A DNA stretch of 64,000 nt, taken from an uncultured virus (IMG/VR IMGVR_UViG_3300037153_000398). Lineage: Duplodnaviria; Heunggongvirae; Uroviricota; Caudoviricetes. The notes beneath the pieces were generated by a model. That model searched no databases. It was not told the origin of the DNA and worked only from the letters and a program-made list of their open reading frames with translations. Made by a program: the position numbers and the translations under genes. Of this stretch, positions 1,357-38,112 are shown piece by piece. The DNA lies in IMG/VR virus record IMGVR_UViG_3300037153_000398. The stretch is one strand, 5' to 3'. Numbering within the stretch: position 1 is the first letter of the stretch; each line of letters starts with the position of its first letter.

Positions 1357-1370
1357 AGTCCCTTCGTCTC

Positions 1371-3685: not shown

Positions 3686-3702
3686 TGCGCGATAAGCTCA
3701 AG

Positions 3703-3951: not shown

Positions 3952-3971
3952 GTTGTTTGTTTCCTCGCGCC

Positions 3972-4662: not shown

Positions 4663-4691
4663 CGTTTTTCTTCGTCCCTTGTTGAAACCTT

Positions 4692-7895: not shown

Positions 7896-7902
7896 GACAA
7901 AG

Positions 7903-9047: not shown

Positions 9048-9061
9048 GACTCGGATTCCCT

Positions 9062-10794: not shown

Positions 10795-10799
10795 GGGCG

Positions 10800-11345
10800 A
10801 TGGAGATGGTCGAGATGATCGCCTTCGCCAACGAGCGCGTCGCCGCAGGTCGGTGGGTCACGGGCGGGCTCGCCGTGATCCAAATAAAGCGCGCCTTCGA
10901 CAAGATCGAACCGCGCGAGCGGCCGGCCGACGAGAAGACGTGGCGCGCGTTCGCCGACAAGCATCTCGCCTTCGGCTTCGCCGGGGCCGATGAGCTGATG
11001 ACGCGCTTCGATCCGTCCTACAAGGCCGGCACGCTGCGCTGCATCCGCTGCGGGGCGGCGGCCAAGGCCGGATGCGATTGCGGCGCGCGGTGCGTGCCGG
11101 TCGAGCCGTCCGAATGGGACGCGCCAGAGCCGGCCGCACCCACGGCCGAACAGACCGCGCCGACCGCCCTGGAACGGGCCACGGCCGCCGTCGCGGCCCA
11201 TCCGGAAATGAGCGACCGCGCAATCGCCAAGCTGACCGGCATCAGCCGCGAAACGGTGCGCCGCGCCCGCGCGGCGGCGGGTGACACATCGGGTGACACA
11301 TCGCCTGCCGATGAATCTGCGTCGGCCGAAAAGGCAACGCCATGA
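10800..11345 (+). CDS. hypothetical protein with Cys cluster and C-terminal HTH
   Basis: CIRCG..CDCG; HPEMSDRAIAKLTGISRETVRRAR. Confidence 0.7.
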   Translation: MEMVEMIAFANERVAAGRWVTGGLAVIQIKRAFDKIEPRERPADEKTWRAFADKHLAFGFAGADELMTRFDPSYKAGTLRCIRCGAAAKAGCDCGARCVPVEPSEWDAPEPAAPTAEQTAPTALERATAAVAAHPEMSDRAIAKLTGISRETVRRARAAAGDTSGDTSPADESASAEKATP

Positions 11346-11524
11346 GTGACTTAGCCGAACGCTGCCGGGAGCTGGCCGATTACGCCGTGCAGGACCGGCC
11401 GCGCCTTCGGGGCCGGGCCGGCGAGCTGGCGCGGAACATCGAGGACACCGTCGAGACGTGGCTGGCGGCGACGACCGACGCCATCCGCTCGGGCGGAACA
11501 ACCGCAACGGAGAAGAGCGAATGA
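11342..11524 (+). CDS. hypothetical protein
   Basis: ATGA coupling at both ends. Confidence 0.55.
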   Translation: MSDLAERCRELADYAVQDRPRLRGRAGELARNIEDTVETWLAATTDAIRSGGTTATEKSE

Positions 11525-12606
11525 GCGACGTTTCAGGCGACCACGACCGCGACATGGGCGACTTCGCCAACTCGGGCGCGCAACCGATGCAGCCGTCCCG
11601 GCCACCGCAGGGTCACGCCCTGGTCCGGCCGACGACCGGCGTCGCCGAGCGGATCATCGGCGCGCAGCACGTCGCGGTCACTCGCGACGAAGACAAGATA
11701 TTCACGAAGTTGGCCATCGTGGCGGCGCGCGCCGGCACCGATTGGTTTTACAGATACCCCGTTCGCAACAACCGCGAGAATCGCACCGACTGGATTGAAG
11801 GCCCGTCGATCAAGCTCGCCAACGACATCGCGCGCATCTTCGGCAACTGCGCCGTCGAAGTGCGCGAGTTGGATGTCGGCGATGCGTGGGTTTTCTATTC
11901 GCGCTTCACCGACATCGAAACCGGCTTCTCGATGGAGCGTGCCTACCGGCAGCGCAAGTCGCAAACGTCGATCAAGACGAAAGACTACGACCGGCAGCAG
12001 GACATCGCCTATCAGATCGGTCAGTCGAAGGCGATTCGCAACGTCGTCGTCAATTCGCTGCAAATCTATTCCGACTTCGCCTTCGAAGAGGCGCGCAATT
12101 CGCTGGTCGACAAGATCGGCAAGGACATCGGCGCGTGGCGCGCGCGCACTGTCGAGGGCTTGCTAAAGATGCCGGTTGAGCTGGCGCGCGCCGAGCGCAT
12201 CGTCGGCCGGCCGTCGAAGGATTGGCTCGCCACCGACATCGCGCAGATCATCGCGGTGATGAAGGCCGTTCACGACGGCATGGCCACCGTCGACGAAAGT
12301 TTTCCCGCCATCGAGCAACAAAAACCGGCAACAGCCGATGCCGGTGCTGCGCATGGCGGCAGCGGCGACGACGGCGGGCGGGCACAGGCCGGCACCGCTG
12401 CCGGGACCGCGTCGGCAGCGTCAGCCGAGCCCACCGCTGCCGACACCATCGAAGCCGCCTACGCGCGCGGCCAGCAAGCCAAGCAAGCCGGCCACTCGCC
12501 GAAGGCTGTGCCGGGCGCGTACCGCGATGTCACGCGGCTCGCGCTCGCGTGGCGCGCCGGCCATGACGGCTCGCCGATGCCGTCGTTCACCGGAGAACAG
12601 AAATGA
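11521..12606 (+). CDS. putative single-strand annealing protein (partner of YqaJ) with Rmf-like C-terminal motif
   Basis: IEGPSIKLANDIARIFGN...SKAIRNVV phage recombination family; position after exonuclease. Confidence 0.6.
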   Translation: MSDVSGDHDRDMGDFANSGAQPMQPSRPPQGHALVRPTTGVAERIIGAQHVAVTRDEDKIFTKLAIVAARAGTDWFYRYPVRNNRENRTDWIEGPSIKLANDIARIFGNCAVEVRELDVGDAWVFYSRFTDIETGFSMERAYRQRKSQTSIKTKDYDRQQDIAYQIGQSKAIRNVVVNSLQIYSDFAFEEARNSLVDKIGKDIGAWRARTVEGLLKMPVELARAERIVGRPSKDWLATDIAQIIAVMKAVHDGMATVDESFPAIEQQKPATADAGAAHGGSGDDGGRAQAGTAAGTASAASAEPTAADTIEAAYARGQQAKQAGHSPKAVPGAYRDVTRLALAWRAGHDGSPMPSFTGEQK

Positions 12607-13655
12607 CGGCGGTTGCGGCGGCGTCGAACGTCATCCCCATCGGCGACAACCGGCTCGAATACCTGAAGGGCCAGATTGTCGCCGGGCGCGAGCGTACCAT
12701 CGCGGGCGGCAGGGAATTCGTCGAAGGCACCCTGCAGATGGCCGAAGCGTTGCGCGAGGCCCGCGAAAAGTTCGACGCGGACGCCGACTTCGGCAAGTGG
12801 CTCGCGGACAACGGGCTCGATTTGCCGAAGGACGACCGCGCCGCGCTCATTGGCATGGCCGGCGACATCGCGCTGGCGCGCACCATCCTGACGGAGTCGA
12901 CCAGCCGATCCTGCCGGCTGATTTGGAGCAAGGAGCGGGACAGGTTTCGCAGCGTTGCGAAACCGCGCCAGCGCGCCGCCGATGTCGCGAAGCGCGACCG
13001 CGTCGTCGCCGAGCTGGAACGCGACCCCAAGCGAAGCAACCGCGCCGTCGCCGAAGCCGCCAAGTGCCACCACAAGTTTGTTGGAAGGGTACGCAAGCAG
13101 ATGCACGGCCAAACGAAAACCACGCCGCCACCCCGCGCTAGCAATCGCGTTGTCGGCAAAGGCTCGATTTCCGCCCTGATCCGCAAAGGCATTGCGCTGG
13201 ACGCCAACAACAACAGCAACGATGTCGCGAAGACGCTCGGCATCGGCGTGTTGTCGTATCGGCAGCTTCGCGACATCGTACTGCTTTCCGACCGCGACGA
13301 CTTGAGCCCCGACGACGCCGCAACGGTGCGCGAGGCTTTGCGCGAAGTGGAAGAGACGCGGCGGCCGGCCAAGGTGTATCAGCGCATCAAGCCGATAGTC
13401 GAGCGCGTGTGGAAACCGGGCTCGACACGCGCGCCGCCCCTGCGCAAAGCCACGCTGAAGCGGCGCGCTGACATCTTCGTCAACGCCATCGAATTCATCC
13501 ACGGCGCATGTGAGCGCGGCCCCGAGATTGAGATACCGCAGCATCTCGACGCGGCGCAGATCGCGCAGTCGTTGGAGCTGGTGAACCACGCCCATGCGGC
13601 GCTCCGTCAGCTCGCCAAACGCATCAAGAGGGAGAGCAAGGAGAGACGGTCATGA
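12603..13655 (+). CDS. DNA-binding protein (DUF3102-like N-terminus + HTH)
   Basis: DADFGKWLADNGL...DRAALI; PKRSNRAVAEAAKCHHKFVGRVR. Confidence 0.6.
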   Translation: MTAVAAASNVIPIGDNRLEYLKGQIVAGRERTIAGGREFVEGTLQMAEALREAREKFDADADFGKWLADNGLDLPKDDRAALIGMAGDIALARTILTESTSRSCRLIWSKERDRFRSVAKPRQRAADVAKRDRVVAELERDPKRSNRAVAEAAKCHHKFVGRVRKQMHGQTKTTPPPRASNRVVGKGSISALIRKGIALDANNNSNDVAKTLGIGVLSYRQLRDIVLLSDRDDLSPDDAATVREALREVEETRRPAKVYQRIKPIVERVWKPGSTRAPPLRKATLKRRADIFVNAIEFIHGACERGPEIEIPQHLDAAQIAQSLELVNHAHAALRQLAKRIKRESKERRS

Positions 13656-14458
13656 GTCACGGCCCGCTAGATCAATCGCGCTTCAAGCTGCAGTGGATTC
13701 AGGTCGACAAACTTCGCGTCGTCTGGCCCGACGCGCAGCGACCCTTCAAGGATTGGTGGGCGAAGGAGATAGCCGAAAACTTCGACCCCGATCAGTTCAC
13801 GCCGGTTCGCGTCATGCTGCCGAACGGCCACGGCATTTATCACATTTGCGACGGCCAGCATGAAGTCCGCGCCGCCGCGATGGCGTTGGGCCTCGATCAG
13901 CAAGTGCCCTGCATCGTTGCGCAGGAAAGCGACCCGGTAAAAGCCGCCGCGTTGTTCGACAACATCAACTCCAATCGGCAGCGCGTGAGCAACATCGAGG
14001 CTTTCAAGGTGCGCGTGACCCGGCGCAATCAGACCGAAGTCGCCATTGATCGGATCGTCCGACATTGCGGCTTCCACGTCGACGCCTCGAAGGCGGCCAA
14101 CGCCATCAGCGCCGTCAGCGCCCTCAATGTCGTGTACACGCAATACGGCGCGAAGGTGCTCGACCAGACGCTTACCGTCATTCGTGTCATCTGGCCCGAC
14201 GACACCACCGCCACCACCGGCAACATCTTGCGCGGCATCGGAATGCTTCTGGTCGAGCACGCCCATGCCGACATTGCGCGGCTTCAGAGCTGCATGACGG
14301 GCGTCTCGACGGCGACGCTCGTGCGCGAAGCCAAGACCGAGCGCGAGATGCAACATGTGAGCGTAGCCGCCGCTATCGGGCACATCATCGTGAGCCGTTA
14401 CAACAAAGGGCTGAAGCCGAACCAACAGCTCAAGCGCAAGGGCAAAGGCTCGAAATGA
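13652..14458 (+). CDS. ParB-like N-terminal domain protein (DUF6551-like)
   Basis: AQRPF...IAENFDPDQFTP...YHICDGQH...AAALFDNIN. Confidence 0.7.
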   Translation: MSHGPLDQSRFKLQWIQVDKLRVVWPDAQRPFKDWWAKEIAENFDPDQFTPVRVMLPNGHGIYHICDGQHEVRAAAMALGLDQQVPCIVAQESDPVKAAALFDNINSNRQRVSNIEAFKVRVTRRNQTEVAIDRIVRHCGFHVDASKAANAISAVSALNVVYTQYGAKVLDQTLTVIRVIWPDDTTATTGNILRGIGMLLVEHAHADIARLQSCMTGVSTATLVREAKTEREMQHVSVAAAIGHIIVSRYNKGLKPNQQLKRKGKGSK

Positions 14459-15105
14459 CGAAGAGCCGCGAAGCGCGCTTTATCGGCAGCGGCAATGCGT
14501 GGGTCGCGGAAGGCCGCTATCGCGGATGGAAGGCGACGTGTTGCGGATGCGGCGCGAGCAAGATCGTCACGTCGCACAGCGACCGCCCGCTGCCGCCGAG
14601 CATCATCGTCAAAAGATTCACGACGGCCGGATGGTACATCGGCAGGCGCGCCCAAGACGACATGTGCGGCGACTGCCGCCGCAAGCCGAAGCAACGGGCC
14701 AACGGCAAGCCGGCAAGCATGACAGCGGCCGAAGTCTTCGCGCAGATACCGTTGACGCCACGGCCGGGTCAAATGCCGCCCGAGTTTTTCGCGGTCTTCA
14801 GGTTGATGATCGACGCCCTGGACGCCGCAGACCGTGCGTTGCGTCGCAACGATCAGAAAGAAGCTATCGATGCGCTGCGCGCGATCTACAGCATCATCGG
14901 GCACGTCGCGCCACGGCCGAACAGCGAACCGAACGCAACGGCGACTTCCGAGTTGCCGATCACTACGGCGCAAAAGAAAAGCGCCGAGCCCGCGACCGCC
15001 GACGCCGAGACAGCCGACGACGATTACGACGGCGACTACGACAAATGGCTCGCCCGGCAGCACGAACAACAGCAGAAGGAAAAACAACCATGCACACCGA
15101 GTTGA
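14455..15105 (+). CDS. Zn-finger hypothetical protein
   Basis: CCGCG...GWYIG...CGDC. Confidence 0.65.
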   Translation: MTKSREARFIGSGNAWVAEGRYRGWKATCCGCGASKIVTSHSDRPLPPSIIVKRFTTAGWYIGRRAQDDMCGDCRRKPKQRANGKPASMTAAEVFAQIPLTPRPGQMPPEFFAVFRLMIDALDAADRALRRNDQKEAIDALRAIYSIIGHVAPRPNSEPNATATSELPITTAQKKSAEPATADAETADDDYDGDYDKWLARQHEQQQKEKQPCTPS

Positions 15106-15677
15106 TCAAGATTCCGCGCGACGAAGCCGCCGTGCTCGCGCGCAAGTATCAGGCGCACCGCGCCTACAGCGAGCCGATTGATTGGGAGATTCAGCGCGCC
15201 TACACGTTGCTCGCGTCCGGCAAGGTCATCATCCGGGCGCTCGAAAGCATCAAGCAAGCTGGCCTCGACAGTGAGCACCTTCCGAAGCTGGCGCTGATGC
15301 CGGCGACGGCGAAGACCTGCCATCTGCGCCGGCTGCGCGGCGGATCGATGGTGATGTCGCCGCGCCCCGACTTCCACTATGCGCGCAAGCATCAGCTCCG
15401 CTTCGGCGACGACACCTTCACCTTCCCGGCCGAGAGCTTCCCGACGAATTCGTGGGGGCGTACCGATCACGAAGCGCAGGTGCCGATCATCCCTGTGCAT
15501 CTGCGCCCGCGTCGCGGCCTCGAAAACTATCACGTCCTTTGGGAAGCCGAGTGGCATCCGGTGCCGCCGCGCGACCCGTATTTGCTGCGGCGGATCGGCA
15601 AGGCCGACCTGTGGGTTGTCGTCGCCCATTGGGACTTGACCGAAGTCGAGCGCGCCGCGCTTTCGACGCGCGTCTGA
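15090..15677 (+). CDS. conserved phage hypothetical protein
   Basis: AGGA RBS; YHVLWEAEW...DPYLLRRIG..LWVVVAHWDLTEVE. Confidence 0.75.
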   Translation: MHTELIKIPRDEAAVLARKYQAHRAYSEPIDWEIQRAYTLLASGKVIIRALESIKQAGLDSEHLPKLALMPATAKTCHLRRLRGGSMVMSPRPDFHYARKHQLRFGDDTFTFPAESFPTNSWGRTDHEAQVPIIPVHLRPRRGLENYHVLWEAEWHPVPPRDPYLLRRIGKADLWVVVAHWDLTEVERAALSTRV

Positions 15678-15700
15678 TCAAACAAACAGGGAGTGCGCCG

Positions 15701-15985
15701 ATGTCGTCGGACAGGCTTGCCGCGCTGATGCGTCGACCGCTCGAAGAGCGGCAGCGCGAATGCGAAGAGAAGATGCGCGCCGCGATGGATGAGCCAACCT
15801 ACAACAAGCTGGTCAGCGGCGTGAAGTGGGACCGCCTGAAATGGTCGCTGATGCCAGCAATTCTCGGTCGCGATCTTTTTGAGCTGTTCTGGTCGGTCTA
15901 CCGCGACACCGTCGAGGCCGAAGCGGAAAAGGCGCTCGCCGAATACGAGCGGATCAAGGCATCGCCGCGCGGCATGTTTGACTGA
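15701..15985 (+). CDS. hypothetical protein
   Basis: GGGAG RBS. Confidence 0.65.
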   Translation: MSSDRLAALMRRPLEERQRECEEKMRAAMDEPTYNKLVSGVKWDRLKWSLMPAILGRDLFELFWSVYRDTVEAEAEKALAEYERIKASPRGMFD

Positions 15986-15998
15986 TGGAGCTGCACCG

Positions 15999-16220
15999 AT
16001 GGGCGACCGCTGGATTGTCTCGGGTTACGCCTTTTTTGAGCACACGTCGCCGTCGAAGGCGATGAGCGAGGCGCAACGGCTCGCGGCGAAGGAAGGCAAG
16101 CCGTTCCGCGTCTACCGCGTGCGCGAGTCGATGACGGTGCCGGAAGGCGTCGGCGCTGGCCGCAAGAGCAAGCTCAAGGTCGCGCTGGCCGACCAAAGCA
16201 AGAGCGAGAGCAATGCCTGA
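15999..16220 (+). CDS. hypothetical protein
   Basis: GGAG RBS; FEHTSPSKAMSEAQRLA motif. Confidence 0.65.
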   Translation: MGDRWIVSGYAFFEHTSPSKAMSEAQRLAAKEGKPFRVYRVRESMTVPEGVGAGRKSKLKVALADQSKSESNA

Positions 16221-16797
16221 CGAAGCACCGCCGCGCCCGTTGTCGCGCCAGGAAACGCACGATCTTTCGATGATCATTAAGGATCGCGCGAAGGTCTTGA
16301 AGTCGCACGCCGCGCACCGGGCAGCGGAGTGCCAAGCCGATTTCGAGCGGAAGTTGGCGACGATCTACAAGTTCGATGATGACGCCGTTTGGCAGGAGGC
16401 CGCCGAGCACGCCGCCAAGGTGGTCGCGGAGTCGCAAGCCAAGATCGAACAACGATGCAATCAGCTCGGCATTCCGTCGCGGTTCGCGCCGCGCCTGGAA
16501 TTGTCGTGGCAAGGTCGCGGTGAAAACGCGCTGGCCTATCGCCGTGCCGAATTGACTCGCGTCGCCAAGGCGACCATCGCGGCCATGCAGCGGCGCGCCG
16601 AGACGCAGATTGAGCGGCAGAGTCTCGACCTGCGCACGCAAGTCGTCGGCATGGGCGTGCTCTCGCCGCAGGCCAAGCTGTTTCTGGAAAGCCTCGCCAG
16701 CATCGACGAAGCGATGGCCGAGCTGCGCTTCGAGGATGTCGAGCGCCGGCTTGAGGAAGAGAAACCGGCGCGCCGCCTGGGCGGCTACGGGCCATAG
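16213..16797 (+). CDS. conserved coiled-coil phage protein
   Basis: Helical; WQGRGENA motif. Confidence 0.7.
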   Translation: MPDEAPPRPLSRQETHDLSMIIKDRAKVLKSHAAHRAAECQADFERKLATIYKFDDDAVWQEAAEHAAKVVAESQAKIEQRCNQLGIPSRFAPRLELSWQGRGENALAYRRAELTRVAKATIAAMQRRAETQIERQSLDLRTQVVGMGVLSPQAKLFLESLASIDEAMAELRFEDVERRLEEEKPARRLGGYGP

Positions 16798-16809
16798 CGA
16801 GACGCCAAG

Positions 16810-17271
16810 ATGGACATTATCGGGAAACTCTTGCGCGACGCGCGGATCGACAAAGCCTTCCGGCTCGGCATCGCGATGGCGACCGGCCGGTCGCTCAAGA
16901 GCGTCGCGCTGACCGATGCACCGCTGAAAGGCCCCGCCATGAAGGTCTACTCCGGACGCCGCGACAAGGGCGGCGTGCCCATCGTGCGCGTCATGAAAGA
17001 CGGCGACGCCCACGCGCTGCGCCAGCGCCACGACATCGTGCAGCACGCGGTCGGATTCGATTGGGGCACGCTCGGCGAGGCGTCGGCGCAATTGTCGCTG
17101 GCGATCTTGGCCGACGCGCTCGGCGACGACCGCAAGGCCCTGCAGCTCTATTGGGGCTTCAACTGGAACGTCGTGGCGAAGCTCAAACCCAACGAGCCGT
17201 GGCGGCTGACCGAAACCGAAGTCAGACGCGCGGTGACGGACATCCTCAGTAATTCGTGGCCACACCCATGA
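16810..17271 (+). CDS. DUF6166-like protein
   Basis: HAVGFDWGTLGEASAQLSLAILADALGDD. Confidence 0.7.
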   Translation: MDIIGKLLRDARIDKAFRLGIAMATGRSLKSVALTDAPLKGPAMKVYSGRRDKGGVPIVRVMKDGDAHALRQRHDIVQHAVGFDWGTLGEASAQLSLAILADALGDDRKALQLYWGFNWNVVAKLKPNEPWRLTETEVRRAVTDILSNSWPHP

Positions 17272-17507
17272 ACGACCAAAAACTTGAACGCAAGGCGTAC
17301 AGCGTCCTCGAATTCTGTGACGCCTACCGCGTCAGCCGAAGCGAGCTTTACCGGATGTGGGATCGCGGCGAAGGCCCGAAGCGCAAACGGTTCGGCCGCA
17401 AAAAGTACATCATCCTGATCGCCGACGCCGAAGCCTGGGCCAAGAGCGAACAGGCGAAGAAAAAGCAGTCGAAGGACGACGGCGAAGAGTGCGGTGCGAC
17501 GACATGA
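17268..17507 (+). CDS. AlpA/excisionase-type HTH protein
   Basis: AYSVLEFCDAYRVSRSELYRMWDRGEGPK...AEAW. Confidence 0.8.
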   Translation: MNDQKLERKAYSVLEFCDAYRVSRSELYRMWDRGEGPKRKRFGRKKYIILIADAEAWAKSEQAKKKQSKDDGEECGATT

Positions 17508-17626
17508 AGACGCTGCTCTGCATCCTGTTGCATCGCCGCTCGTATTTCGAGATTGCCACGAAGGTCTGTGGCAAGTGGCATCGGCGAGGCTGGTGCGACA
17601 TCTGCCACCGGGAATGGGCGCGCTGA
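17504..17626 (+). CDS. small Cys/His-rich protein
   Basis: ATGA and TGATG coupling. Confidence 0.5.
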   Translation: MKTLLCILLHRRSYFEIATKVCGKWHRRGWCDICHREWAR

Positions 17627-17898
17627 TGGATCGCACCGTCTGGAAAGCCACGCTGCAGATGCGCGAGATACAGCAGATCGCCGTGCCGGCCGGCGCGCAT
17701 TTGCTCTGCGCGCGCGAGCAAGGCAACGACATCTGCGTCTGGTTTTTGTGCGATCCGGCCGCGCCTCACGAGTCACGAACCATCGCCATCGTCGGCACCG
17801 GATATTCCGCGCCATCTGAAAACGAAGCGCGCTACCTGGGCACCGCATCGTTCCGCGACGGCCAATTCATGTTTCACGTCTTCGAACGGCAGCAATGA
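17626..17898 (+). CDS. conserved small phage protein (DUF7352-like)
   Basis: VPAGAHLL...IAIVGTG...YLGT...FHVFE. Confidence 0.75.
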   Translation: MDRTVWKATLQMREIQQIAVPAGAHLLCAREQGNDICVWFLCDPAAPHESRTIAIVGTGYSAPSENEARYLGTASFRDGQFMFHVFERQQ

Positions 17899-18212
17899 GC
17901 ATCGACGTTGATCCGTCAGAGTTCGTCGAGTGGATGGCGCGCGGCAGCGTCGACAAGCGCGGCGTCGGCTTCGTCATCTGCGGAGACGTGTATCTTGCCG
18001 CTCGGATTCTCGACAAAGGCGTGCTCATGTTTGTGCTTCGTGGCGACGACGCATGGCTCGACGCTCTTGCCGTTGCTGCCGGCGATGCCTTTCAGGTGGC
18101 GCGTCCTCCTACGGCCGAGAGCATGGCGTCAACGATGCTGCAATGGTGGCCGGACGATCCGAGCGTACAGCGAACCGCGTTGTTGATCGCGCGGCATGGA
18201 AAGGGAAGCTGA
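17895..18212 (+). CDS. hypothetical protein
   Basis: Coupled. Confidence 0.6.
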   Translation: MSIDVDPSEFVEWMARGSVDKRGVGFVICGDVYLAARILDKGVLMFVLRGDDAWLDALAVAAGDAFQVARPPTAESMASTMLQWWPDDPSVQRTALLIARHGKGS

Positions 18213-18472
18213 TGAGTGTTCTGTACCTGCACGTCAAATACGAAGACTACAAAGCGGTCGAAGATCAGATGCGCGCGTTCGCCGAGACGACGCACAAGAC
18301 GACGGGCGGCTTTTATCACAAGGCCATCCGGCTGGCGATCACCGACGACTTGGTGCTGGAAATTCACGGCCCGCTGGTCGGCGGCGAGGGGCATCAGACG
18401 ACGACGCGCAAGCGCAGACGGCGCACGGCCAGCAAGCGGCGAAAGCAAAAGCATGGGCCTGTGCATCGATGA
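18212..18472 (+). CDS. hypothetical protein with basic tail
   Basis: TGATG coupling. Confidence 0.6.
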   Translation: MSVLYLHVKYEDYKAVEDQMRAFAETTHKTTGGFYHKAIRLAITDDLVLEIHGPLVGGEGHQTTTRKRRRRTASKRRKQKHGPVHR

Positions 18473-18674
18473 GCGCGGCTTGACGCTCACATGCGACGGC
18501 CAGCACGGCGACGACGTACCGCCGTCCGCAACGTTCAAGCATCCTGACGGCTACATCGGCGAATATCGAGAAGCGATGGCGGCCGGCTGGAAAGACACGT
18601 TCACGCCGTCACCGGGCAGCCGGCGCGTGTTCTTCGGACCCTGCTGCTCGGGCAAACGCGGAGTAACGACATGA
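18453..18674 (+). CDS. small Zn-binding hypothetical protein
   Basis: LTCDG...AAGW...GPCC. Confidence 0.55.
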   Translation: MGLCIDERGLTLTCDGQHGDDVPPSATFKHPDGYIGEYREAMAAGWKDTFTPSPGSRRVFFGPCCSGKRGVTT

Positions 18675-19192
18675 AGGCAGCTCTTGCATTGATTGCACTG
18701 CTGGCACTGGCGTCGCCGGCCACGGCGCGCGTCCATCATGGGGGCGGATTGGAGACGGTGCGCACAGCGGCCGGGCCGATCACGGTCGCGGCCGACGCCG
18801 CACCCCGGTTCGTGTCGCTAATCGGCGATCTTGTCCGGCACGGTTATCGCGGATGGGTGCATTGCTTCGATGCGCACGGCCACATGCCGCACTCGCTGCA
18901 CCATAGCGGCCGGGCGTGCGACTTCGCGCAGCGCGGTCGCAATCGCACGACGCGGATCATGTACCACGCGCACGCGATCATCGCCGCGCACGGCCTGCGC
19001 GACGGCTGCTCGTTCCGCGATTGCGGCCATGTCGATACAGGGCAGCCCACCGGCCGTAGGGCGCTCGCCTATGCGCGCCACCGGCACCGCAACCGATACG
19101 CCGGCTATCTCGACGGCGGCTACGGCTACGAGCCGCAGTGGCGCTACGCGGCAGCGCAGCCCGCGTGGTGGGACTCGCGTCGGGCCTATTGA
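18671..19192 (+). CDS. signal-peptide-bearing peptidase M15-like (LAS) cell-wall hydrolase
   Basis: MKAALALIALLALASPATA signal; SLHHSGRACDF (H-x6-D) and DCGHVD. Confidence 0.7.
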   Translation: MKAALALIALLALASPATARVHHGGGLETVRTAAGPITVAADAAPRFVSLIGDLVRHGYRGWVHCFDAHGHMPHSLHHSGRACDFAQRGRNRTTRIMYHAHAIIAAHGLRDGCSFRDCGHVDTGQPTGRRALAYARHRHRNRYAGYLDGGYGYEPQWRYAAAQPAWWDSRRAY

Positions 19193-20050: not shown

Positions 20051-21367
20051 TTATTTTGCTAGCTGCACCACTTTGCCGGCCGACAGATCGATCAGCGTCC
20101 GGCGCAGCAAGCCATCGCTCGGTCGATTGATGTAGGCCGCATAATGGTTTTCGATCATCTTCGTCGACGTGTCGTGCGCCTTGGCGACGATGGTCGCGTC
20201 GACGTTGTCCATCAATTGCCGGGCGATATGAGTGTGGCGCAGTGCGTACAGCGTCACCGGCAGGCCATCATCGCGGGGCTTCAGATTGGATGCGCAGCGC
20301 GCCAGCGTGCGCTCGAAGGCGTCGCCATAGTATTTATTCCAGCCACCGGACCCGCCTTTGACGCACCACGGATTGCCGCTCGGCTGTGCCACCAACAAAT
20401 CGGTGGCGCGCTTGCCCTTGGCGTGTTGCTGCAGCCGCAGCGCCAAATCGAGCGGAATCGGCACCCACGCCGACTTGACGGCTTTCTCGCCGCGCCCGCC
20501 TTTATCCGACACCGGCATCATCACGCCGCAACTGGCCGCGACCTTCAGGTGACGCTTCTGTAACCGGCCGCCAATCTGACTCGGTCGCGCGCCGGTCTGC
20601 CCGCACAGCTCGACAAACAAACCAAATTCGTTGCTGTCCGCATAGGCGGCTCGCATGATCGCCGCCACGTCCCCTTCATCGAGGATGACGTTCATCGGCT
20701 CGGACCCGGTCGGCGGCAACTTCTGCAGAGCGACGCGCCACGGCGTTTCCTTGATGCGCTTGTCGCGCGTCTTGGCGAGATTGAGTGCCGCCTTGAAAGC
20801 GAAGTTGATGCGGTTGCGCGTGGCCGGCATGATGCCCGCGTCGGTGAGCGCCTTGTTCCATTCGTCGAAGGCGGTGGCATCGAGACGCGACACCTGCAGC
20901 GTCAACAAGACCATTTCGTCAAGCTGGCCATTTTTATCACGGTGGCCCTTTCTCAGATAGCGAGACACGCGCGTCACGTTGCGCATGTCGCCGCCGCGCG
21001 CTTTCAGGTCGTTCTCATAGTGCGTGAGCGCGTCGGCGACCGTGATATGAGCGGAGCGGATCGTCAGGTCATCGCTTGCGGCAATCTCATGCGCGCGGGC
21101 AAGCGCCTGCCCATAGCTCAAGACGGTCAGCTCGTTGGCTTCGGCAAAGTCATCGGCGACGACGACGCGGCCGTCGGGGCCGCGCAACACTCGCACATCG
21201 GCGTGCTTGTCGCCGTGCCAGCGGCGCACGACCCAAGTACCGGCCGCGTCCAGGCGTCGGCGATAGCCGAGCTGCATCTTCGGCGCGATGGTCCTGTAGT
21301 ACGGTTCCTTCCGGCACTCGAAGCCGATTCGCTTCTTCAGGTGGATGTCAGCGTCTTTCGCTCGCAT
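20051..21367 (-). CDS. int: tyrosine integrase with N-terminal arm-binding domain
   Basis: LGYRRR..AGTWVVR arm domain; TGARPSQ (R), DKG (K), YALRHT, HDTS..MIENHY catalytic boxes. Confidence 0.92.
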   Translation of the reverse strand: MRAKDADIHLKKRIGFECRKEPYYRTIAPKMQLGYRRRLDAAGTWVVRRWHGDKHADVRVLRGPDGRVVVADDFAEANELTVLSYGQALARAHEIAASDDLTIRSAHITVADALTHYENDLKARGGDMRNVTRVSRYLRKGHRDKNGQLDEMVLLTLQVSRLDATAFDEWNKALTDAGIMPATRNRINFAFKAALNLAKTRDKRIKETPWRVALQKLPPTGSEPMNVILDEGDVAAIMRAAYADSNEFGLFVELCGQTGARPSQIGGRLQKRHLKVAASCGVMMPVSDKGGRGEKAVKSAWVPIPLDLALRLQQHAKGKRATDLLVAQPSGNPWCVKGGSGGWNKYYGDAFERTLARCASNLKPRDDGLPVTLYALRHTHIARQLMDNVDATIVAKAHDTSTKMIENHYAAYINRPSDGLLRRTLIDLSAGKVVQLAK

Positions 21368-21409
21368 AGAATTTTCTTTCCCTTTGCCGGTTTCCGATTG
21401 TGCGCCGTC

Positions 21410-21676
21410 GCGGATGGAGTCGCGATGGAGTCGGATCAACAAAAGGAAGGCTGGCACAGAAATATATAAGGATGCAAAAGCCTGGGACAATAAATTAACA
21501 AAACCACTGCGGCATCTGCACTTCTAATACATACGCCGGGGATATGTGATAGTGCCAGCCTACACGCTCAAAACGCCGGACGTGCCGCGATACGGCACGT
21601 TATACGTGGCTAGGCTGACGCGACATCGTTTGCGCATCAATGACTTAGCTCCGGTCAGGTCGAGGCGGATGGAGTC
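21410..21676. promoter_or_regulatory. attP-like region (arm-type repeats + IHF-like site)
   Basis: GATGGAGTC at 21413, 21424, 21668; CATCAATGACTTA 21635-21647 near IHF consensus WATCAANNNNTTR; AT-rich centre. Confidence 0.55.
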
Positions 21677-22615: not shown

Positions 22616-22999
22616 TTACGCGGCAAGCTCTTCGACCAGCCTGACGACTTTGCGCCGCACATCTGCATCCCCGATCTTGGCGAACGCCGTGCAGAGCGCG
22701 ATGCCGTCGTTGGTGGTCAGCACGCCGAGAAAGGCAGACTCCGGTGGGCGACGTTTGCCGGTCGCGCCCGGCGCGCCCTCGAAGAACCATGCGACCGGCA
22801 CTTCGAGGGTATTCGACATCTGCTGCAGCCGGCTCGCGCCAACGCGATTGGTGCCCTTCTCGTATTTTTGCACCTGCTGGAACGTGAGCCCGAGCGCGTT
22901 GCCAAGAGCCTCTTGGCTCATGCCCTGCTCCATCCGCCGCATCCTGATCCGCTTGCCGACGTACACGTCGGTTTCGGTCGGCACTTTGGTCTTTGGCAT
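22616..22999 (-). CDS. XRE-family HTH regulator (Hyphomicrobiales type)
   Basis: DVYVGKRIRMRR...SQEALG..LGLTFQQVQKYEKGTNRVGASRL. Confidence 0.93.
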   Translation of the reverse strand: MPKTKVPTETDVYVGKRIRMRRMEQGMSQEALGNALGLTFQQVQKYEKGTNRVGASRLQQMSNTLEVPVAWFFEGAPGATGKRRPPESAFLGVLTTNDGIALCTAFAKIGDADVRRKVVRLVEELAA

Positions 23000-31763: not shown

Positions 31764-32402
31764 ATGACTGAGCGGCAACATATAGGCGTGTCAGTATACG
31801 AGGCAGGTGGTTACATGTTCCTGCGCTTCCTGCTGCGCCCCGAACATGTCGACCGGCTGCACAAGGCCAAGCGACTCGCGGTGCGCGGCCAGCCGGGCAA
31901 CGGCTTCATCATCGCGCCCGACACCAAGGGCAACAAGCTGGCCACTGCCGGGAGCAGCTTTTATCTGCAGTACGCCTTGAGCGGCTTCGACATCTCGCAA
32001 CGGCCGCGCAAGCGGATCGACGTGCAGCCGGAATACGAGAACGGCCACATCCGCATCCCGCCGCTGCCGGCCGCGTGGGTCAACGCCGATCCTGAATTCG
32101 TCAACGAGGGCACCTATACCGAAACGGATCGCCACATGAAGCTGCCGAAGAACGGCCGCGACGACGCCGTGCGCGTCGACAGCAAGGCGGCCGTGATCCC
32201 GCAAGGTGCCACGTCGCCCGTGCCGAAGGCGACGCCGCCGTCCTACGTCGTGCCCAACGACGCATCGATGTCGGCGATACAGACCGAGCTGGCGACCAAG
32301 CTCGGCGAGTGCCGCGCGCTCATTCGCGCGATGGAAGACCGCACCAAGCTGAAGCTCATGCTCGACCGCAATCTGCGCGTGGTGGTCGCGCTGCCATCGT
32401 AG
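31764..32402 (+). CDS. hypothetical protein
   Basis: Strong AAGGAG RBS. Confidence 0.7.
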   Translation: MTERQHIGVSVYEAGGYMFLRFLLRPEHVDRLHKAKRLAVRGQPGNGFIIAPDTKGNKLATAGSSFYLQYALSGFDISQRPRKRIDVQPEYENGHIRIPPLPAAWVNADPEFVNEGTYTETDRHMKLPKNGRDDAVRVDSKAAVIPQGATSPVPKATPPSYVVPNDASMSAIQTELATKLGECRALIRAMEDRTKLKLMLDRNLRVVVALPS

Positions 32403-32421
32403 GCCCAAGGGAGTCAGGATC

Positions 32422-32721
32422 GTGAAAATCTTCACCCTCGCCGACGTGCCAGACGAGCTGGCGCAAGCGTGGCTGCAGCATTTGCGCGACTTCGACACTG
32501 CGCACGACGGTTGCCACTTCAAGGTGGTCAATCAGCCGACGCGCGACATGTCGCTTGGCGAGATGATCCGCGCCATCGAAGTCGATCCGAGCCTTGAGCT
32601 GCGCTACGCCGGGCCGCGCGATGGAGTCGACGACGCGCTCGACGCCATCGCCGACACCGCCGCCGACGCTCTGCGCGCCGGTTGCAAAACGTCGAGCACA
32701 ACCCGGTCACGAAAAGTTTAA
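32422..32721 (+). CDS. hypothetical protein
   Basis: WLQHLRDFD..H.GCHF motif. Confidence 0.6.
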   Translation: MKIFTLADVPDELAQAWLQHLRDFDTAHDGCHFKVVNQPTRDMSLGEMIRAIEVDPSLELRYAGPRDGVDDALDAIADTAADALRAGCKTSSTTRSRKV

Positions 32722-32916
32722 GTCAATGGGTTAGCGGCAATTCAGCTCCGCACCGATTGGAGAATTTCGGTTCCGTTTGTTGTTTGCTCGCGCGCGGTCG
32801 TCAATGACTTAGCGCCGATCCGCGACCGGATTGATTGACGAATTTCGTTTGATTGCTCGCGCGAGCAAACAAACAAAAAGCGGTTGGTGGGCCGCATCAT
32901 CGTTATTTGCTATACT
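32722..32916 (+). promoter_or_regulatory. degenerate ~78-bp tandem duplication with IHF-like sites, palindrome and extended -10
   Basis: GTCAATGGGTTAGC 32722 / GTCAATGACTTAGC 32800; palindrome TTGCTCGCGCGAGCAA 32853-32868; TGCTATACT 32908-32916. Confidence 0.55.
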
Positions 32917-33026
32917 GATGGCACGCGATGGGAATGAGCCCGCCGCGCGCGACGCCGCCAAATGGCGTCGGGTTGTTTGACACCGTCAGCAACGGAGTCA
33001 CCCGCGATGCGCAAGCATCCGGAAAC

Positions 33027-33054
33027 AAAAAGGGCCGCCCAACGCGGGCGGCCC
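33027..33054 (-). terminator. intrinsic terminator (minus strand)
   Basis: GGGCCGCCC-N5-GGGCGGCCC followed by TTTTT on minus strand. Confidence 0.55.
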
Positions 33055-33079
33055 AGGTCTTTCGAAGGAAGCATCGAAC

Positions 33080-33550
33080 ATGAAAGCCAAGACTAGCACT
33101 GACATCGACAACGTCAACGCATCGATCAGGCGATGGCAGACGCGGCTCACGCGAGCCGTCAACACCATCAACCGGCTCACCGCCAAGCGCACGCGCCTTG
33201 AGCGCAAGCGCAACGCGCTGCCGGTCGGCGAAGTGGTCGCCACCGTCACGGTGCCCGCCGCGTCGCCGGCTGCGGTCGCGGTCGCCAAGTCCGTCGTGGC
33301 GGAAGCCGCGCCCGGCAAGGCGGTCACGCCCGCACCGAAGGACGACGGGGACATCCCCGCTTTCCTTCGGCGGCAGAAGTTGCCAGCGGACGAAGCTGCC
33401 GCCGCGCAAATCAGAGCGGAGCAAGCCGAGCTGAAAAAGCGCAAGACGGCGGGACGCAAGGCGAAGAAAGATGCCGCCAAGCGCGGCGAGCTGCGCCGGA
33501 TGCCGCTCGAAGGCCGCGCCGCTCTTGCGGCGATCCGTGGCGAAGCGTAA
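33080..33550 (+). CDS. basic coiled-coil protein with FtsZ C-terminal-peptide-like motif DIPAFLRRQ
   Basis: AAGGAA RBS; own promoter and terminator; Ala/Pro linker then DDGDIPAFLRRQ. Confidence 0.75.
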   Translation: MKAKTSTDIDNVNASIRRWQTRLTRAVNTINRLTAKRTRLERKRNALPVGEVVATVTVPAASPAAVAVAKSVVAEAAPGKAVTPAPKDDGDIPAFLRRQKLPADEAAAAQIRAEQAELKKRKTAGRKAKKDAAKRGELRRMPLEGRAALAAIRGEA

Positions 33551-33582
33551 CCTACTCGCCGTTCCCCTCTGGACAAGCATAA

Positions 33583-33614
33583 GCCGCCGCCCGTGCCTTG
33601 GGCGGCGGTTTTTT
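33583..33614 (+). terminator. intrinsic terminator
   Basis: GCCGCCGCCC-N7-GGGCGGCGGT TTTTT. Confidence 0.8.
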
Positions 33615-33846
33615 ATGCGCCGGCCTCGATGGCCACGACGCACCGCTGCAGCGCCGCCAGCCCTTCGGCCGGCGTGTAGAAGCCGAGCGGATCGCCGTCA
33701 GGCCCGAACCAGAATTCGCGGCCGGTGATCGCGGCATCGCCGACGAAGCTATCGAGGCCGGCGCGGCGCAAGCCGTCGTTGGTGATCGCGACGCGGCGGA
33801 TGCCGAGCAACCGGCAGGCGTCGTCGACTCGGGCGCGCGCCGTCAT
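33613..33846 (-). CDS. hypothetical protein
   Basis: ATGA coupled. Confidence 0.5.
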   Translation of the reverse strand: MTARARVDDACRLLGIRRVAITNDGLRRAGLDSFVGDAAITGREFWFGPDGDPLGFYTPAEGLAALQRCVVAIEAGA

Positions 33847-34172
33847 GCGCCGCCCTGCGGCTCGATGCGTTGCATGATTTCCTTTTCGCTCTCGGGAACG
33901 AGCTTGCGCACGATGGCGATGAAGTTGGTCAGCAGCTCTTCGCGCGTCTGATCGGTGACGGGGCGCTCGTTGTCGGGCTTGCCGATTTCCTCGACGCAAA
34001 TGTGCCCGGCAATCCAGAGCGAGAGCATGTCGGCGAGCACCGCGCTTTGCGTCGCTTGGCCTTGACCCTGCAGGATCGCCTGACAGCGCCGCGACAGCTC
34101 TTCGGCGCGTTCGGTCATGGCGTCAGTGATCGCGCGGTCGACCATGCGGTCGTCATCGTCGGTATCGGGCAT
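33843..34172 (-). CDS. hypothetical protein
   Basis: GGGAG RBS; QSAVLADMLSLWIAGH motif. Confidence 0.65.
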   Translation of the reverse strand: MPDTDDDDRMVDRAITDAMTERAEELSRRCQAILQGQGQATQSAVLADMLSLWIAGHICVEEIGKPDNERPVTDQTREELLTNFIAIVRKLVPESEKEIMQRIEPQGGA

Positions 34173-34605: not shown

Positions 34606-36036
34606 TCAAAGCTCCGCGCTCGCAAACCAATGAAAGAGCGGAAAAGCGTTGTTGGTTTGGTAAAACAACCACCCGCAAGTGCTCATGCTCAACGTCGTCC
34701 AACCGCTTGTCGAGATGTTGTCGGTCCATGCGCCGTTGGCGTACTCCGAAGACGCACTGAGCGTCCCCTGCCGGTCGTAAGTAAAGATATTGGACGGCGG
34801 CGCGCGGAACGGTGTCTTGAAGGCGACGCGGCCGGGAAAACTGAAGTCGCTCGCTCCGACGTGCCCGGCCAGGATCGCGTTAACGAGGCCGGCAGTGGTC
34901 GCCGTCCCGACACCGACGCCGTTATCGTAGCTGGATTGAAAGTACCGCTGGCAAAACAACAACTCGGTCTGAACGTCGCGAAACTCCGGGTCCGGTGGAT
35001 TGCTGTTCAATCCCGTGGCAATGCCCTTCGTCACCCTAAAATCGACGCAGCTTATTTCCACATATCCGCTGCTCGCGTTCATGCCGGGGATGTTCAAAGT
35101 GAGCCCGTAGCCGCTCAAACAATTATTGTGGATCGGCCAAGAGAACGCGACCGTGGCCGCCTGTCCCGCGCCGACAGTTTGCAAATTTGAAAGGCCAAGG
35201 TCGGTCGTGACCGACGAAAAAACATCGGTCGTGTTGCAGTAGTATGCGGCGAGCGCAGGCGTAATAGGGGCGCTCGTGTTGTTGTAAAATCTCGCCTGAA
35301 AAGTCACGGTGAAGCCGCCAGTGCCGAGTCGAAGCTGGCCGGCGATGAGGCTTTCAATCCGGTGGATCAAGTTAAGGCTTGTCAGGCCGGTGGCGCAGTA
35401 GAGCCGAAGCGCGTTGTTCGCGACCGCACTGTTTTGCGTTTGCTGCCACGGGCAAGCCGCGCCGCCCGGCGACAAGACCCATCCGTCCAATGTGTAGAAC
35501 GCATTCCCGGCCGCGACGCTGCCGCTCAGGCCGCGCTGCGCAATGTCCATGTGCGGGTTGCGAATCTTATTCGCAAAGCCGCCCGGACCCGGAACGCCCT
35601 GCAGACCTTGCGCGCCGGTCGCGCCGGTCGGGCCAGTAGCCCCCGTCGCGCCGGCAGGTCCGGTCGCGCCGGCAGGTCCGGTCGGCCCCGGCACACCTTG
35701 CACGCCCTGTGGGCCTTGCGGCCCCGTCGCTCCGGTAGCGCCGGTCGGTCCCGTTGGGCCGGGCACACCCTGATCGCCTTGCGGACCTTGCGGCCCCACC
35801 GGGCCTTGGATGCCTTGCGGTCCAATCGGCCCGGCCGGCCCAGGCTCGCCCTGCGGGCCGACGCCGCCCGGCCCCTGCGGCCCCGGTGGCCCTTGGATGC
35901 CTTGCGGTCCTTCCGGCCCGACAGGCCCAGGTGGCCCGACCGGCGCGACGGTCAAGTCTTGCTCTTGCTGCGCCTGTCCGGGCGACAGCGCGATGCGCGG
36001 CGGGCCGCTCTGCAGTCCGTCGAAGCGGTCGGTCAT
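34606..36036 (-). CDS. collagen-repeat tail fibre / receptor-binding protein
   Basis: About 40 Gly-X-Y triplets, then [14 protein letters not shown] and [10 protein letters not shown] motifs typical of phage fibres; lower GC in C-terminal part. Confidence 0.8.
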
Positions 36037-36356
36037 CGCGGGACCAAATACTTGACGATGCTTTTCAGGATCGCGCGCGGGTCGCTCTTAGCGATCCAGG
36101 CGTCGATTTCGGCCGGCGACGCCGAGAGCTTTTTCCGCAGCTCCTTCAGGTCACGGTCGGCCGCGAGCGCCGCGCTGCGCTTATCCCATGCGTCGGGATC
36201 GTGAGCGTCGATGACGCTATCGAGCGTCTTTTGTTGCTTCGCGGTCAGCGCGTCGCGGCCGTCGAGGGTGCCGTCCGGTCGCCAGACAAGCGGCGTGCCG
36301 CCGAGCCCGGCCGCGACGAGTTCTTCGCCGAAGGATCGTCCGAGTTTTTTGCTCAT
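36033..36356 (-). CDS. fibre-associated hypothetical protein
   Basis: [12 protein letters not shown]...VIDAHDP; coupled. Confidence 0.65.
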
Positions 36357-37741
36357 GCCATTATCTCTACGATTTCGGCGTAGCCCTGCTGATTGTTGCC
36401 GGCCCCGACCGCGTGGCCCAACGCGCTCTTTATCTGAAGGCTGTAATACTGATCGACGCCCTCGACGTTCGGCTTGTCGTAGCCGACCAGCGATGCGTAG
36501 GCGGCTACCGAGCTTCCGCCGTTGCTCACTTCGGCGGCTGCGGAAACCTGACCGGAATTGTTGGTGGTGCCCCGGAATATCGCGGCATAGCAACCGTCGC
36601 TGGACGTGTTCGCATAAAAAATTTCCTCCCAATGGACGCGCACAAGGTTGACGGCATTGTGCGGCGTGATCGCGCCCGAGGCGATGGCGACATAGGTGGT
36701 CGATGACGTGCTTGGATTGCCGGCCGCATAGACCGACGAAAAGCGTTGGATGATGTCGCCGGGTCGCCGGACGCCCGGCCCCATCGTGACCACGCGGCGC
36801 GGCGCGACGTTGTAGGTGCCCGGCGTCGGCACGTCGCCCGGACCAAATTCGACATAGCCGAGCAAACGAATCTGTGCGCCGCCTACGGCGGTGGTGCCGT
36901 AAATGATGCCGGCCCCGTTCGATGCGCTGCCGATCCCGGCGACGTTGGCCAGCTCGTCGAAGCGATCCGGGTAAAGGTAGACCTGATAACTGCCCACATC
37001 CGGGCCGCCGCTGAACGCGCTCGATTGCCACAAGCCGAGTGCGACGCCAGTGCCGAGATTGATCGCCACGACCCAAAGCCGGAACGCGACGTTGGCGGCC
37101 GAGCCGAACGATGCGCCGATGGCCGTCGAGATAGAGAATGGCGAGATGATCGTGTACGTCGTCGGTAAACCAGAATCGCATCTAACAAACGTGATGCGTG
37201 GCGACGATGTCGCGCTCGGATCATTGCCGGCCGCATCCTTGACGCGCACCGTGAGGATGCCGCTGGCGACGCTCGCCTCAAGCGACAGGTTCTCGAAGTG
37301 CAGCGGCGGGTCGCGCGACAGCGTGATGGTCGAGCCGGCCGCCGCAACGCCGATGCCGCCGCGCGTGCCGGCCGTCGTGTTCGACGCGGCCACGTTGACC
37401 GCGCCGGCAAAGCCGTTGAGCGTCGTGACGCCGCCCGGCGTCCCGGCTGGCCCCTGCGGTCCCGTTGGCCCGGCAGGCCCGAGCGGTCCCGGTGGCCCGG
37501 CAGGCCCGGTCGCGCCTGTTGCGCCCGGCACGCCTTGAGGCCCTTGCGGACCCTGCGGGCCGGCAGGCCCGGTGCCGCCCGGTCCCTGCGGTCCCTGCGG
37601 CCCAGGTGGCCCAGGTGGCCCGACGCCACCGGGGCCTTGCGGCCCAGGCGGCCCCGGCAAACCTTGCGGACCCGGTGGTCCTTGCGGCCCCGGCGAGCCG
37701 CCCGGCCCGACCGTCAAAAGGACTTCCTCGCCATCGCTCAT
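36353..37741 (-). CDS. collagen-repeat tail fibre protein
   Basis: GPQGPPG repeats; [13 protein letters not shown]-terminal beta domain ending EIMA. Confidence 0.8.
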
Positions 37742-38112
37742 CGCGTCACGCCTTCAACGACGGTGACGGCGCAATCCAGAATGCGCTCGACGTAGCCGTT
37801 GGTCATCAGCCGCACGAGGTCGGCGACGTAGCTGCCCTCTTCGAGCTGAGAGAGCATGTCGCGCGTGATGCGGATGCTGAATTGTCCGGCCGTTGCGTTG
37901 TCGAGCGTGATGCCATTGGTCGGCGACGACAGCGACAAGACGACTTCGTGATCCGTTTCCTGATGACGCATCTCCATCATCAAGGTGCTGCCGGTCAGGT
38001 CGATAGGCGCAGTCGTGCCGTCGCCGGCCTGCGTCTGATAGACGAAGGGCACGATCCAATCTTCATTGCACGCAATGTTCATGGTGCCGGTGTAGTACGC
38101 GGGGCCGGGCAT
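37738..38112 (-). CDS. BppU-like baseplate/fibre adaptor
   Basis: [14 protein letters not shown]...GSYVADL...VVEGVTR. Confidence 0.7.

Follow-up and report, generated by a model that had tools for sequence, protein, structure and literature searches.

A FtsZ-tail-like peptide on a family of small basic phage proteins and on unrelated phage proteins that act on DNA

A short conserved core in the bacterial division protein FtsZ binds FtsA, ZipA and MinC and, according to the portions of the source cited here, overlaps the site recognised by ClpXP (PMC3983244). In Caulobacter, turnover of FtsZ by ClpXP and ClpAP depends on its C-terminus, as the cited excerpts report (PMC4285227), and the excerpted preprint text states that the conserved C-terminal peptide (CTC or CCTP) is needed for membrane-anchor binding (bioRxiv 10.1101/632075). 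Here we describe a gene whose 156-amino-acid (156-aa) product carries a conserved copy of this peptide. It lies at positions 33080..33550, on the plus strand, of a 64,000-nucleotide stretch of DNA from an uncultured virus (IMG/VR IMGVR_UViG_3300037153_000398; the whole stretch is hereafter ‘the window’). The phage protein family to which it belongs has in common with the FtsZ peptide the consensus acidic-acidic-x-L-D-I-P-A-F-L-R-R, and in both a disordered linker precedes the motif. Unlike FtsZ, however, the 156-aa protein lacks a tubulin-like GTPase domain, and its motif is internal, being followed by a conserved basic helix and an MPLxGKAAL box.

Several small phage early or accessory proteins are known to hinder the Z-ring, among them lambda Kil, Qin DicB, T7 Gp0.4 and P1 Icd (PMC3961180, PMC11897509, PMC6832061, PMC13423816). 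In the passages cited, these proteins act on FtsZ itself or via ZipA or MinC, and not by copying the tail. The family described here shares no sequence with any of the four: it has no significant PHROG or Pfam match. A conceptual parallel is found outside bacteria. Viruses of eukaryotes copy short host docking peptides on disordered regions and thereby plug into host hubs. Such short-linear-motif mimicry is documented for eukaryotic viruses, whereas no bacterial example that uses the FtsZ tail was found in the literature searched. Likewise, no report of the motif on a phage protein or any other non-FtsZ protein was found in full-text literature, a body of text that excludes subscription journals, and the papers listed for the string ‘IPAFLR’ concern, in the passages retrieved, bacterial division proteins. 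A sequence-only reading of the window had proposed a route distinct from Kil- and DicB-type inhibition, and within the same coverage no published equivalent came to light. Phage docking on, or interference with, the divisome through mimicry of a host peptide would be a variant not seen in the literature searched. If true, copying FtsZ's docking peptide would also differ from the route known for phages, in which small proteins block host division by targeting FtsZ itself or the factors that regulate it.

The conservation of the peptide speaks for a function. In an alignment of 150 family members, which are 33-62% identical to the 156-aa protein, the five hallmark residues of the motif are retained almost throughout: I92 in 134/150, P93 in 147/149, F95 in 131/149, L96 in 140/149 and R98 in 145/149. 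These columns carry 3.5-4.2 bits of information, compared with <1.2 bits for most columns of the linker. The lead-in to the motif is looser, with D89 present in 103/144 members and Leu at position 90 in 85/142, and the family consensus reads DDLDIPxFLRR. The distance from L40, in the N-terminal helix, to I92 varies from 14 to 94 residues. The C-terminal box is conserved above even the motif (M141 148/149, P142 149/149, A148 149/149). In the window itself, the DIPAFLRRQ core lies exactly where the sequence-only reading had placed it (33350-33376, preceded by the acidic lead-in DDG) and occurs once in the six-frame translation. The expectation that D/E-I-P-x-F-L-R would be selectively conserved among homologues was also borne out by the counts above. 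Judged from the alignment, strong selection maintains the peptide as a functional short linear motif.

The motif is also the one found at the end of FtsZ in bacteria related to the probable hosts. In the 9.7-Mb genome of Bradyrhizobium sp. SRL28 (G001), FtsZ is a 611-aa protein ending in ...PQGDDHLDIPAFLRRQAN, and its C-terminal peptide is DDHLDIPAFLRRQAN; the DIPAFLRRQ 9-mer is identical in the 156-aa protein and in this Bradyrhizobium-type FtsZ. The same genome encodes a second, shorter FtsZ paralogue (418 aa; L074:1471-2727, +) with a variant tail, ...LDIPVFLNRKAN. When the family profile was run against 301 genomes of the host-type bacterial family, it returned one true homologue and 56 weak matches (E 5e-5 to 1e-3), and the latter align at profile positions ∼50-116. 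The sequence of 29 loci from these weak matches was inspected. All 29 contain L[DE]IPAFLRR, in 28 of them 2-4 residues separate it from the frame end, and the GGGTGTG tubulin signature is in the same frame in 25/29, the other four being cut or partial frames. In host genomes, the FtsZ linker and tail are, by this profile comparison, the closest resemblance to the middle of the phage family. Taken together with its conservation, the motif in the 156-aa protein is, at the level of sequence, a selectively conserved copy of a host-type FtsZ C-terminal peptide.

Searches within the Bradyrhizobium genome and against curated profiles agree with this view. A DNA pattern for I-P-x-F-L-R-R gave three matches in G001 against one control, and the tally for [DE]-I-P-x-F-L-[basic or polar] was four against none. 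The two FtsZ genes are the only credible carriers; the other matches are not credible because they lie in a frame with low G+C at the third codon position (GC3) or lack an acidic lead-in or basic residues after F-L. Residues 63-99 of the 156-aa protein align to the last 40 positions of the NCBIfam profile FtsZ_alphas_C (TIGR03483), weakly (E 0.031) and at 14.9 bits against a cut-off of 62.95, so that the protein does not belong to FtsZ_alphas_C. Nor does it belong to FtsZ (TIGR00065), as it has no tubulin-like GTPase domain. A profile search of the PDB gave nine weak matches (E 0.14-0.39), and in four of them it is an FtsZ tail that aligns with the motif. Set against the class of FtsZ tail peptides, the 156-aa protein has the consensus [DE]-[IL]-P-x-F-L-[RK]-[RK] with an acidic lead-in and the preceding disordered, variable linker, and it lacks the extreme C-terminal position. 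Capture of a 3′ fragment of ftsZ was considered as the source of the motif and rejected, as no DNA match is longer than 41 nt (82-91% identity) and the matches end at the motif. For the gene at 33080-33550 the similarity to ftsZ is a single motif-coding stretch of 20 nt (90% identical), and the stretch of at most 41 nt belongs to another carrier. The DNA similarity being confined to the motif, the mimicry is at the level of the peptide and does not stem from a recently captured gene fragment.

The peptide is not restricted to this family. DNA encoding exactly DIPAFLRRQ is present in six IMG/VR contigs, of which one holds a family member and five hold proteins unrelated to the family. Four of these five are small proteins that end 2-3 residues past the motif, and the fifth is a 480-aa MT-A70 methylase. 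Two of the small proteins, in L144 (2204-2536, +; 110 aa) and L139 (L139/L154), are homologous coiled-coil proteins with the exact tail; the other two, in L143 (2492-2722, -; 76 aa) and L142 (a frame of roughly 70 aa), have the exact tail near their end. The L144 protein ends in ...TDHLDIPAFLRRQSK and a host FtsZ (L109) in ...DDHLDIPAFLRRQSK, and the last 13 residues of the two are identical.

A broader IMG/VR scan, which fixed the codons CTN and CGN, found at least 120 stretches that encode D-I-P-x-F-L-R-R. Flanking DNA was taken for 80 of these loci and yielded 79 frames. Of these, 62 are long open reading frames (ORFs; at least 100 aa), and 14 are shorter than 60 aa and serve as an internal control. 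Among these listed matches, to which all of the following counts refer, an acidic residue is found at -2 to -4 in 48/62 long ORFs but in only 1/14 short control frames, and Ala occupies position x in 31/62 long ORFs. Grouped by sequence, the ORFs of at least 60 aa form at least 28 clusters. The motif is within 14 residues of the stop codon in 10/28 clusters and near the N-terminus in a few. The largest named group is a 15-locus cluster of MT-A70 methylases (L146, L156, L164, L209, L213 and L221; 6/6 scanned members match MT-A70, one with ParB_N). Others are an HTH_23 (helix-turn-helix, HTH) protein family at 13 loci (L172), a replication initiator at three loci (L159), a GapR-like DNA binder at two loci (L155), a DUF3102 protein (L145), an ERF recombinase (L181) and a DNA helicase (L191). 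No structural or lysis protein is found among the confidently annotated tagged clusters; the other clusters have no confident functional annotation. These carriers bear the same peptide and acidic lead-in on disordered ends. They are unrelated in sequence to the family, and most have the tag at one extreme end, the C- or the N-terminus, without the module of basic helix and MPLxGKAAL box. Judged by its spread, the peptide looks like a portable docking tag, with a use beyond that of a decoy. The occurrence of an FtsZ-tail peptide on at least 28 unrelated phage protein groups is new here, and it raises the question of a link between the readers of the FtsZ tail and the replication, recombination and methylation of mobile elements.

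The 156-aa protein is strongly basic (isoelectric point, pI, 11.2; net charge +18); the first helix contributes +10 and the C-terminal part +8, in line with the basic 156-aa product that had been read from the sequence. The AlphaFold2 model, built on the 150-sequence alignment, has a mean predicted local distance difference test (pLDDT) score of 82.5 and a predicted template modelling score (pTM) of 0.37, and it contains no globular core. It begins with a helix at aa 2-46 (33083..33217, +; pLDDT ∼97), a putative coiled coil. The positions conserved in this helix, I16, W19, L23, A26, I30, L33, R37 and L40, follow a 3-4-3-4 spacing. Because this spacing is that of the a/d core of a heptad repeat, the helix is interpreted as a coiled coil, which agrees with the N-terminal coiled coil proposed earlier and fits an oligomer. 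An Ala/Pro/Val-rich disordered linker follows at aa 47-87 (33218..33340, +), and low confidence extends over aa 47-90 (pLDDT 53-65), as expected from the claim that the peptide comes after a disordered linker. The putative FtsZ-tail mimic, DDGDIPAFLRRQ, occupies aa 88-99 (33341..33376, +), and in the model it forms a short helical turn at aa 94-96. Beyond it are the conserved basic helix at aa 102-135 (33383..33484, +; I111, E114, K119, K122, R126, A132) and the C-terminal box G-[DE]-x-[KR]-[KR]-M-P-L-x-G-[KR]-A-A-L-x-x-I at aa 136-153 (33485..33538, +), the most conserved stretch of the family, with a short modelled helix at aa 146-152. A Foldseek search of the model against the PDB gave no matches. 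The ESM Atlas likewise gave no usable match by features, and all of its structure matches had TM values under 0.5.

These features suggest how the protein may work. Borne on a floppy linker, as in FtsZ, DDGDIPAFLRRQ would mimic the host FtsZ C-terminal peptide and dock the protein on host readers of the FtsZ tail. Among the candidates FtsA comes first, with MinC and ClpX as others; all three are encoded by G001, whereas ZipA and ZapD were not found in that genome. The heptad helix at the N-terminus probably makes the protein oligomeric, so that several tail copies would be presented at once, and both helices appear basic enough for nucleic-acid binding. Two outcomes can be envisaged. The protein may out-compete FtsZ filaments for the membrane anchor, and division would then be delayed; or the protein and its cargo would be tethered to FtsA and the divisome site. 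From its sequence features, the 156-aa protein probably plugs into, or competes at, the docking site of the FtsZ tail. The fuller proposal, that it docks through its peptide on a tail reader, FtsA before others, in a multivalent manner and either competes with FtsZ or is tethered, is one that we consider somewhat likelier to be right than wrong. The sequence-only reading had cast the protein as an oligomeric FtsZ-tail decoy, or as one that hitchhikes to midcell. The selectively conserved, host-type peptide on which that idea was built stands. The motif is, however, not peculiar to this gene, and many unrelated DNA-acting phage proteins share it. Given that the tag is portable and the family strongly basic, a docking tag for a probably nucleic-acid-bound protein is at least as likely as a dedicated decoy.

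Several observations weigh against docking on a tail reader. The motif is internal, with 57 residues following it in the 156-aa protein and a median of 59 in the family; in FtsZ it is terminal. The Leu that precedes D-I-P in FtsZ and in the family consensus (at the frequency given above) is Gly in the 156-aa protein. The MPLxGKAAL box, for which the proposal offers no explanation, is more conserved across the family than the motif. The confidently annotated carriers among the listed matches are all DNA-transaction proteins, which a pure division decoy would not predict. Furthermore, the FtsZ used for comparison comes from the kind of host to which relatives point. A co-fold of Bradyrhizobium FtsA residues 1-405 with residues 75-156 of the 156-aa protein scored 0.00, without controls, and counts neither way.

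Given the bias of the carriers towards DNA transactions, the reader may have nothing to do with division, and two alternatives stay in play. In one, ClpX (or ClpA) reads the peptide as it reads the FtsZ C-terminus, and any effect on division is secondary; the tag would then serve degradation or remodelling, limiting the lifetime of early phage proteins or dismantling their complexes with DNA. This would fit the E. coli ClpXP site near the FtsZ C-terminus, which overlaps the FtsA/ZipA/MinC site in the cited portions of PMC3983244, and the excerpted Caulobacter work, in which FtsZ is stabilised by C-terminal changes and the N-domain of ClpX is needed (PMC4285227). The host-type genome G001 encodes ClpX, the tag is 0-14 residues from the stop in the 10/28 clusters noted above, and many carriers act on DNA. 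In the family, however, the motif is internal and a conserved 59-residue module comes after it, so that a free-end degron is a poorer match for the 156-aa protein than for the terminal carriers. Among those, the residues after FLRR are diverse. Moreover, what stabilised FtsZ in the Caulobacter excerpts was a tag on its terminus or a change to its final two residues, and the 156-aa protein lacks that end (PMC4285227). On balance we regard a Clp handle as improbable.

In an equally doubtful alternative, the peptide would bring phage DNA-transaction proteins to a host protein outside division, such as a component of the replisome or nucleoid, and the FtsZ tail would only resemble the peptide or share that hub. 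Its appeal lies in the annotated carriers among the listed matches, which are MT-A70, HTH, GapR-like, DUF3102, ERF, replication initiator and helicase proteins with no structural or lysis protein among them, and in the strongly basic character of the family (median pI 10.4). Yet the only credible carriers in G001 are its two FtsZ paralogues, the likeness to FtsZ reaches unforced positions (the upstream acidic residues and Leu, and the Ala at x in half of the long ORFs listed), and we know of no such non-division hub, which also counts against it. Least likely of all, and in our estimate very improbable, is a plain DNA-binding regulator that involves no mimicry. The early operon would then simply encode a small regulator, such as a late-gene activator, or a nucleoid-associated protein, and the FtsZ-like stretch would be structural or a DNA contact. 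The protein is basic and helical, in most relatives its gene closes an early operon whose genes all point the same way (the gene before it shares its strand in 50/69 loci), and repeats upstream could be operator sites. But neither an HTH nor any other DNA-binding family is matched, the motif follows a variable disordered linker outside any fold, unrelated proteins carry the same peptide at their termini, and the central part of the family profile finds FtsZ tails in host genomes.

Docking on a reader of the FtsZ tail has a wider and more speculative extension. The tail peptide could be a general address label on the DNA proteins of mobile elements, its reader (FtsA or ClpX) their hub, and the family a multivalent nucleic-acid adaptor that holds up division. 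This would cover replication initiators, helicases, recombinases, methylases, ParB-like and nucleoid proteins of phages and other mobile elements of alphaproteobacteria; we think it possible but rather unlikely. The family and the tag in any case offer five conserved residues as mutational handles, and if these proteins do prove to be natural high-avidity competitors of the FtsZ-FtsA interaction, they would be useful as probes of divisome assembly in alphaproteobacteria.

The family is large and almost wholly uncharacterised in databases. A library clustered at 50% identity holds 270 representatives at E<=1e-3, of which 91 also pass E<=1e-10, and a profile search of a 90% library gave 126 matches at E<=1e-5, nearly all of them unnamed or ‘hypothetical’ metagenome proteins and a few with evidently automatic names. 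IMG/VR contains 71 loci. The named relatives come from Bradyrhizobium sp. SRL28 (P0184) and a Xanthobacteraceae metagenome-assembled genome (P0037), and by their origin the relatives point to Bradyrhizobium/Xanthobacteraceae hosts for the family. Reference genomes seldom contain the family: among the 301 sampled genomes of the host-type bacterial family one carries a member, and the same genome is the only one among 401 sampled from the order. A tblastn search of deposited phages and plasmids with the 156-aa protein gave no match. Nor does the protein have a significant match in Pfam, PHROG or NCBIfam: the best PHROG match has an E of 0.26 and the best Pfam match, ATG16, scores 19.5 bits against a cut-off of 33.7. 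Across the 150 members the commonest Pfam match is DarP (three members, best E 3.9e-4). The coiled-coil matches ATG16, WWC1 and DarP were all below their cut-offs and were rejected. No GapR_DNA-bd (PF10073) or other DNA-binding domain was found in the 156-aa protein or in the 150 members.

Four elements define the family and are present, in order, in the 156-aa protein: the N-terminal helix, with the signature RWxxRLxRA...KL...RxRL in the alignment of 150 members, the DDLDIPxFLRR-type motif, the basic helix and the KMPLxGKAAL box. The median net charge is +15. The motif, basic helix and box are kept while the N-terminus differs, with other coiled coils in P0237, P0244, P0248 and P0249; P0246 consists of the module of motif, basic helix and box alone. 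In P0245, a metagenome protein of 169 aa, this module stands at the N-terminus, before a DUF3102 domain. The DUF3102 protein of the window phage is a separate gene and lacks the motif. Fusion of the C-terminal box into longer proteins was not seen at E<=1e-3, in a search that constitutes weak evidence. Within at most 8 kb of 72 family loci there is one other credible tagged ORF, in L046. At 69 family loci, for which neighbour counts rest on crude gene calls, the gap on the upstream side has a median of 173 bp, and the downstream gene is on the opposite strand in 41/69. That gene is in many cases a small ORF, with an endolysin gene and a tail fibre gene next in line.

The window, with a G+C content of 64%, is phage DNA; five soil-metagenome DNA runs, and no RNA run, are listed as carrying the stretch. 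The ORF at 33080-33550 starts with ATG, is open throughout and has codon-position G+C typical of coding sequence (GC3 0.82; second position, GC2, 0.54), in agreement with its initial call as a gene. A Shine-Dalgarno-like AAGGAAG, seen by direct reading of the sequence, lies 8 nt 5′ of the ATG (33065..33071, +). The gene sits between two converging blocks, as had been described: a block of plus-strand genes upstream whose last end is at 32721, and minus-strand genes that start at 33613. The minus strand holds a myovirus-type late operon of tail fibres (from 34606), baseplate, tape measure, sheath, portal and head genes that extends to 62241. To the left lie an integrase (20051-21490, -) and a repressor-like gene (22616-22999, -).

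The upstream intergenic region spans 358 bp (32722..33079) and is rich in repeats. Two 51-nt direct repeats, 71% alike and 78 bp apart, lie at 32722-32772 and 32800-32850. The sequence TTG(T/A)TTGCTCGCGCG occurs in two copies, one after each direct repeat (32780-32794 and 32849-32863), and a palindrome with 18-nt arms lies at 32843-32878. The repeats and palindrome look like candidate regulator sites, either a paired operator or iteron-like. A promoter of the gene's own had been proposed at 32908-32916, but a sigma-70 consensus scan of 32400-34000 found no sites. A GC-rich hairpin of 10 pairs with a T-run on the minus strand (33032..33054, -) is located 26 nt 5′ of the start codon and is a candidate terminator-like element for antisense transcription or a 5′ leader structure. 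Downstream, the terminator placed earlier at 33583-33614 is corroborated by an intrinsic-terminator-like hairpin at 33584-33608 (nine GC pairs, loop of 7) that is followed by TTTTTT on the plus strand (33584..33614, +). The hairpin scan lists 33584-33608 on the minus strand only, and the plus-strand terminator was read directly from the sequence. The hairpins at 33032-33054 (-) and 33584-33608 (bidirectional) flank the gene, and both face antisense transcription from the late operon. Rfam gave only sub-threshold small-RNA-like matches on the terminator hairpins in 32600-33700; the best reached 24.7 bits, where the gathering score is 41.

Other parts of the window are of separate interest. The left third (826-19192) is also phage-like and encodes a NusG-like protein (826-1356), a primase-helicase (1649-3685), the 400-aa DUF3102 protein (7903-9105) and a YqaJ exonuclease (9832-10794), as well as DUF6551 and DUF6166 proteins. 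With the integrase in mid-window, the stretch may represent a single phage genome in permuted form or two elements side by side. In the late operon, two consecutive tail-fibre genes (34606-36036, -, and 36353-37741, -) contain long collagen-like G-x-y repeats (PHROG 5073, 6320), and a tail-fibre assembly-like gene stands next to them at 37738-38112. Finally, the gene at 56958-59885 (-) encodes a 975-aa fused protease-capsid protein with matches to a head maturation protease and a major head protein (PHROG 80, 617), and the same protease-capsid fusion is present in L060.

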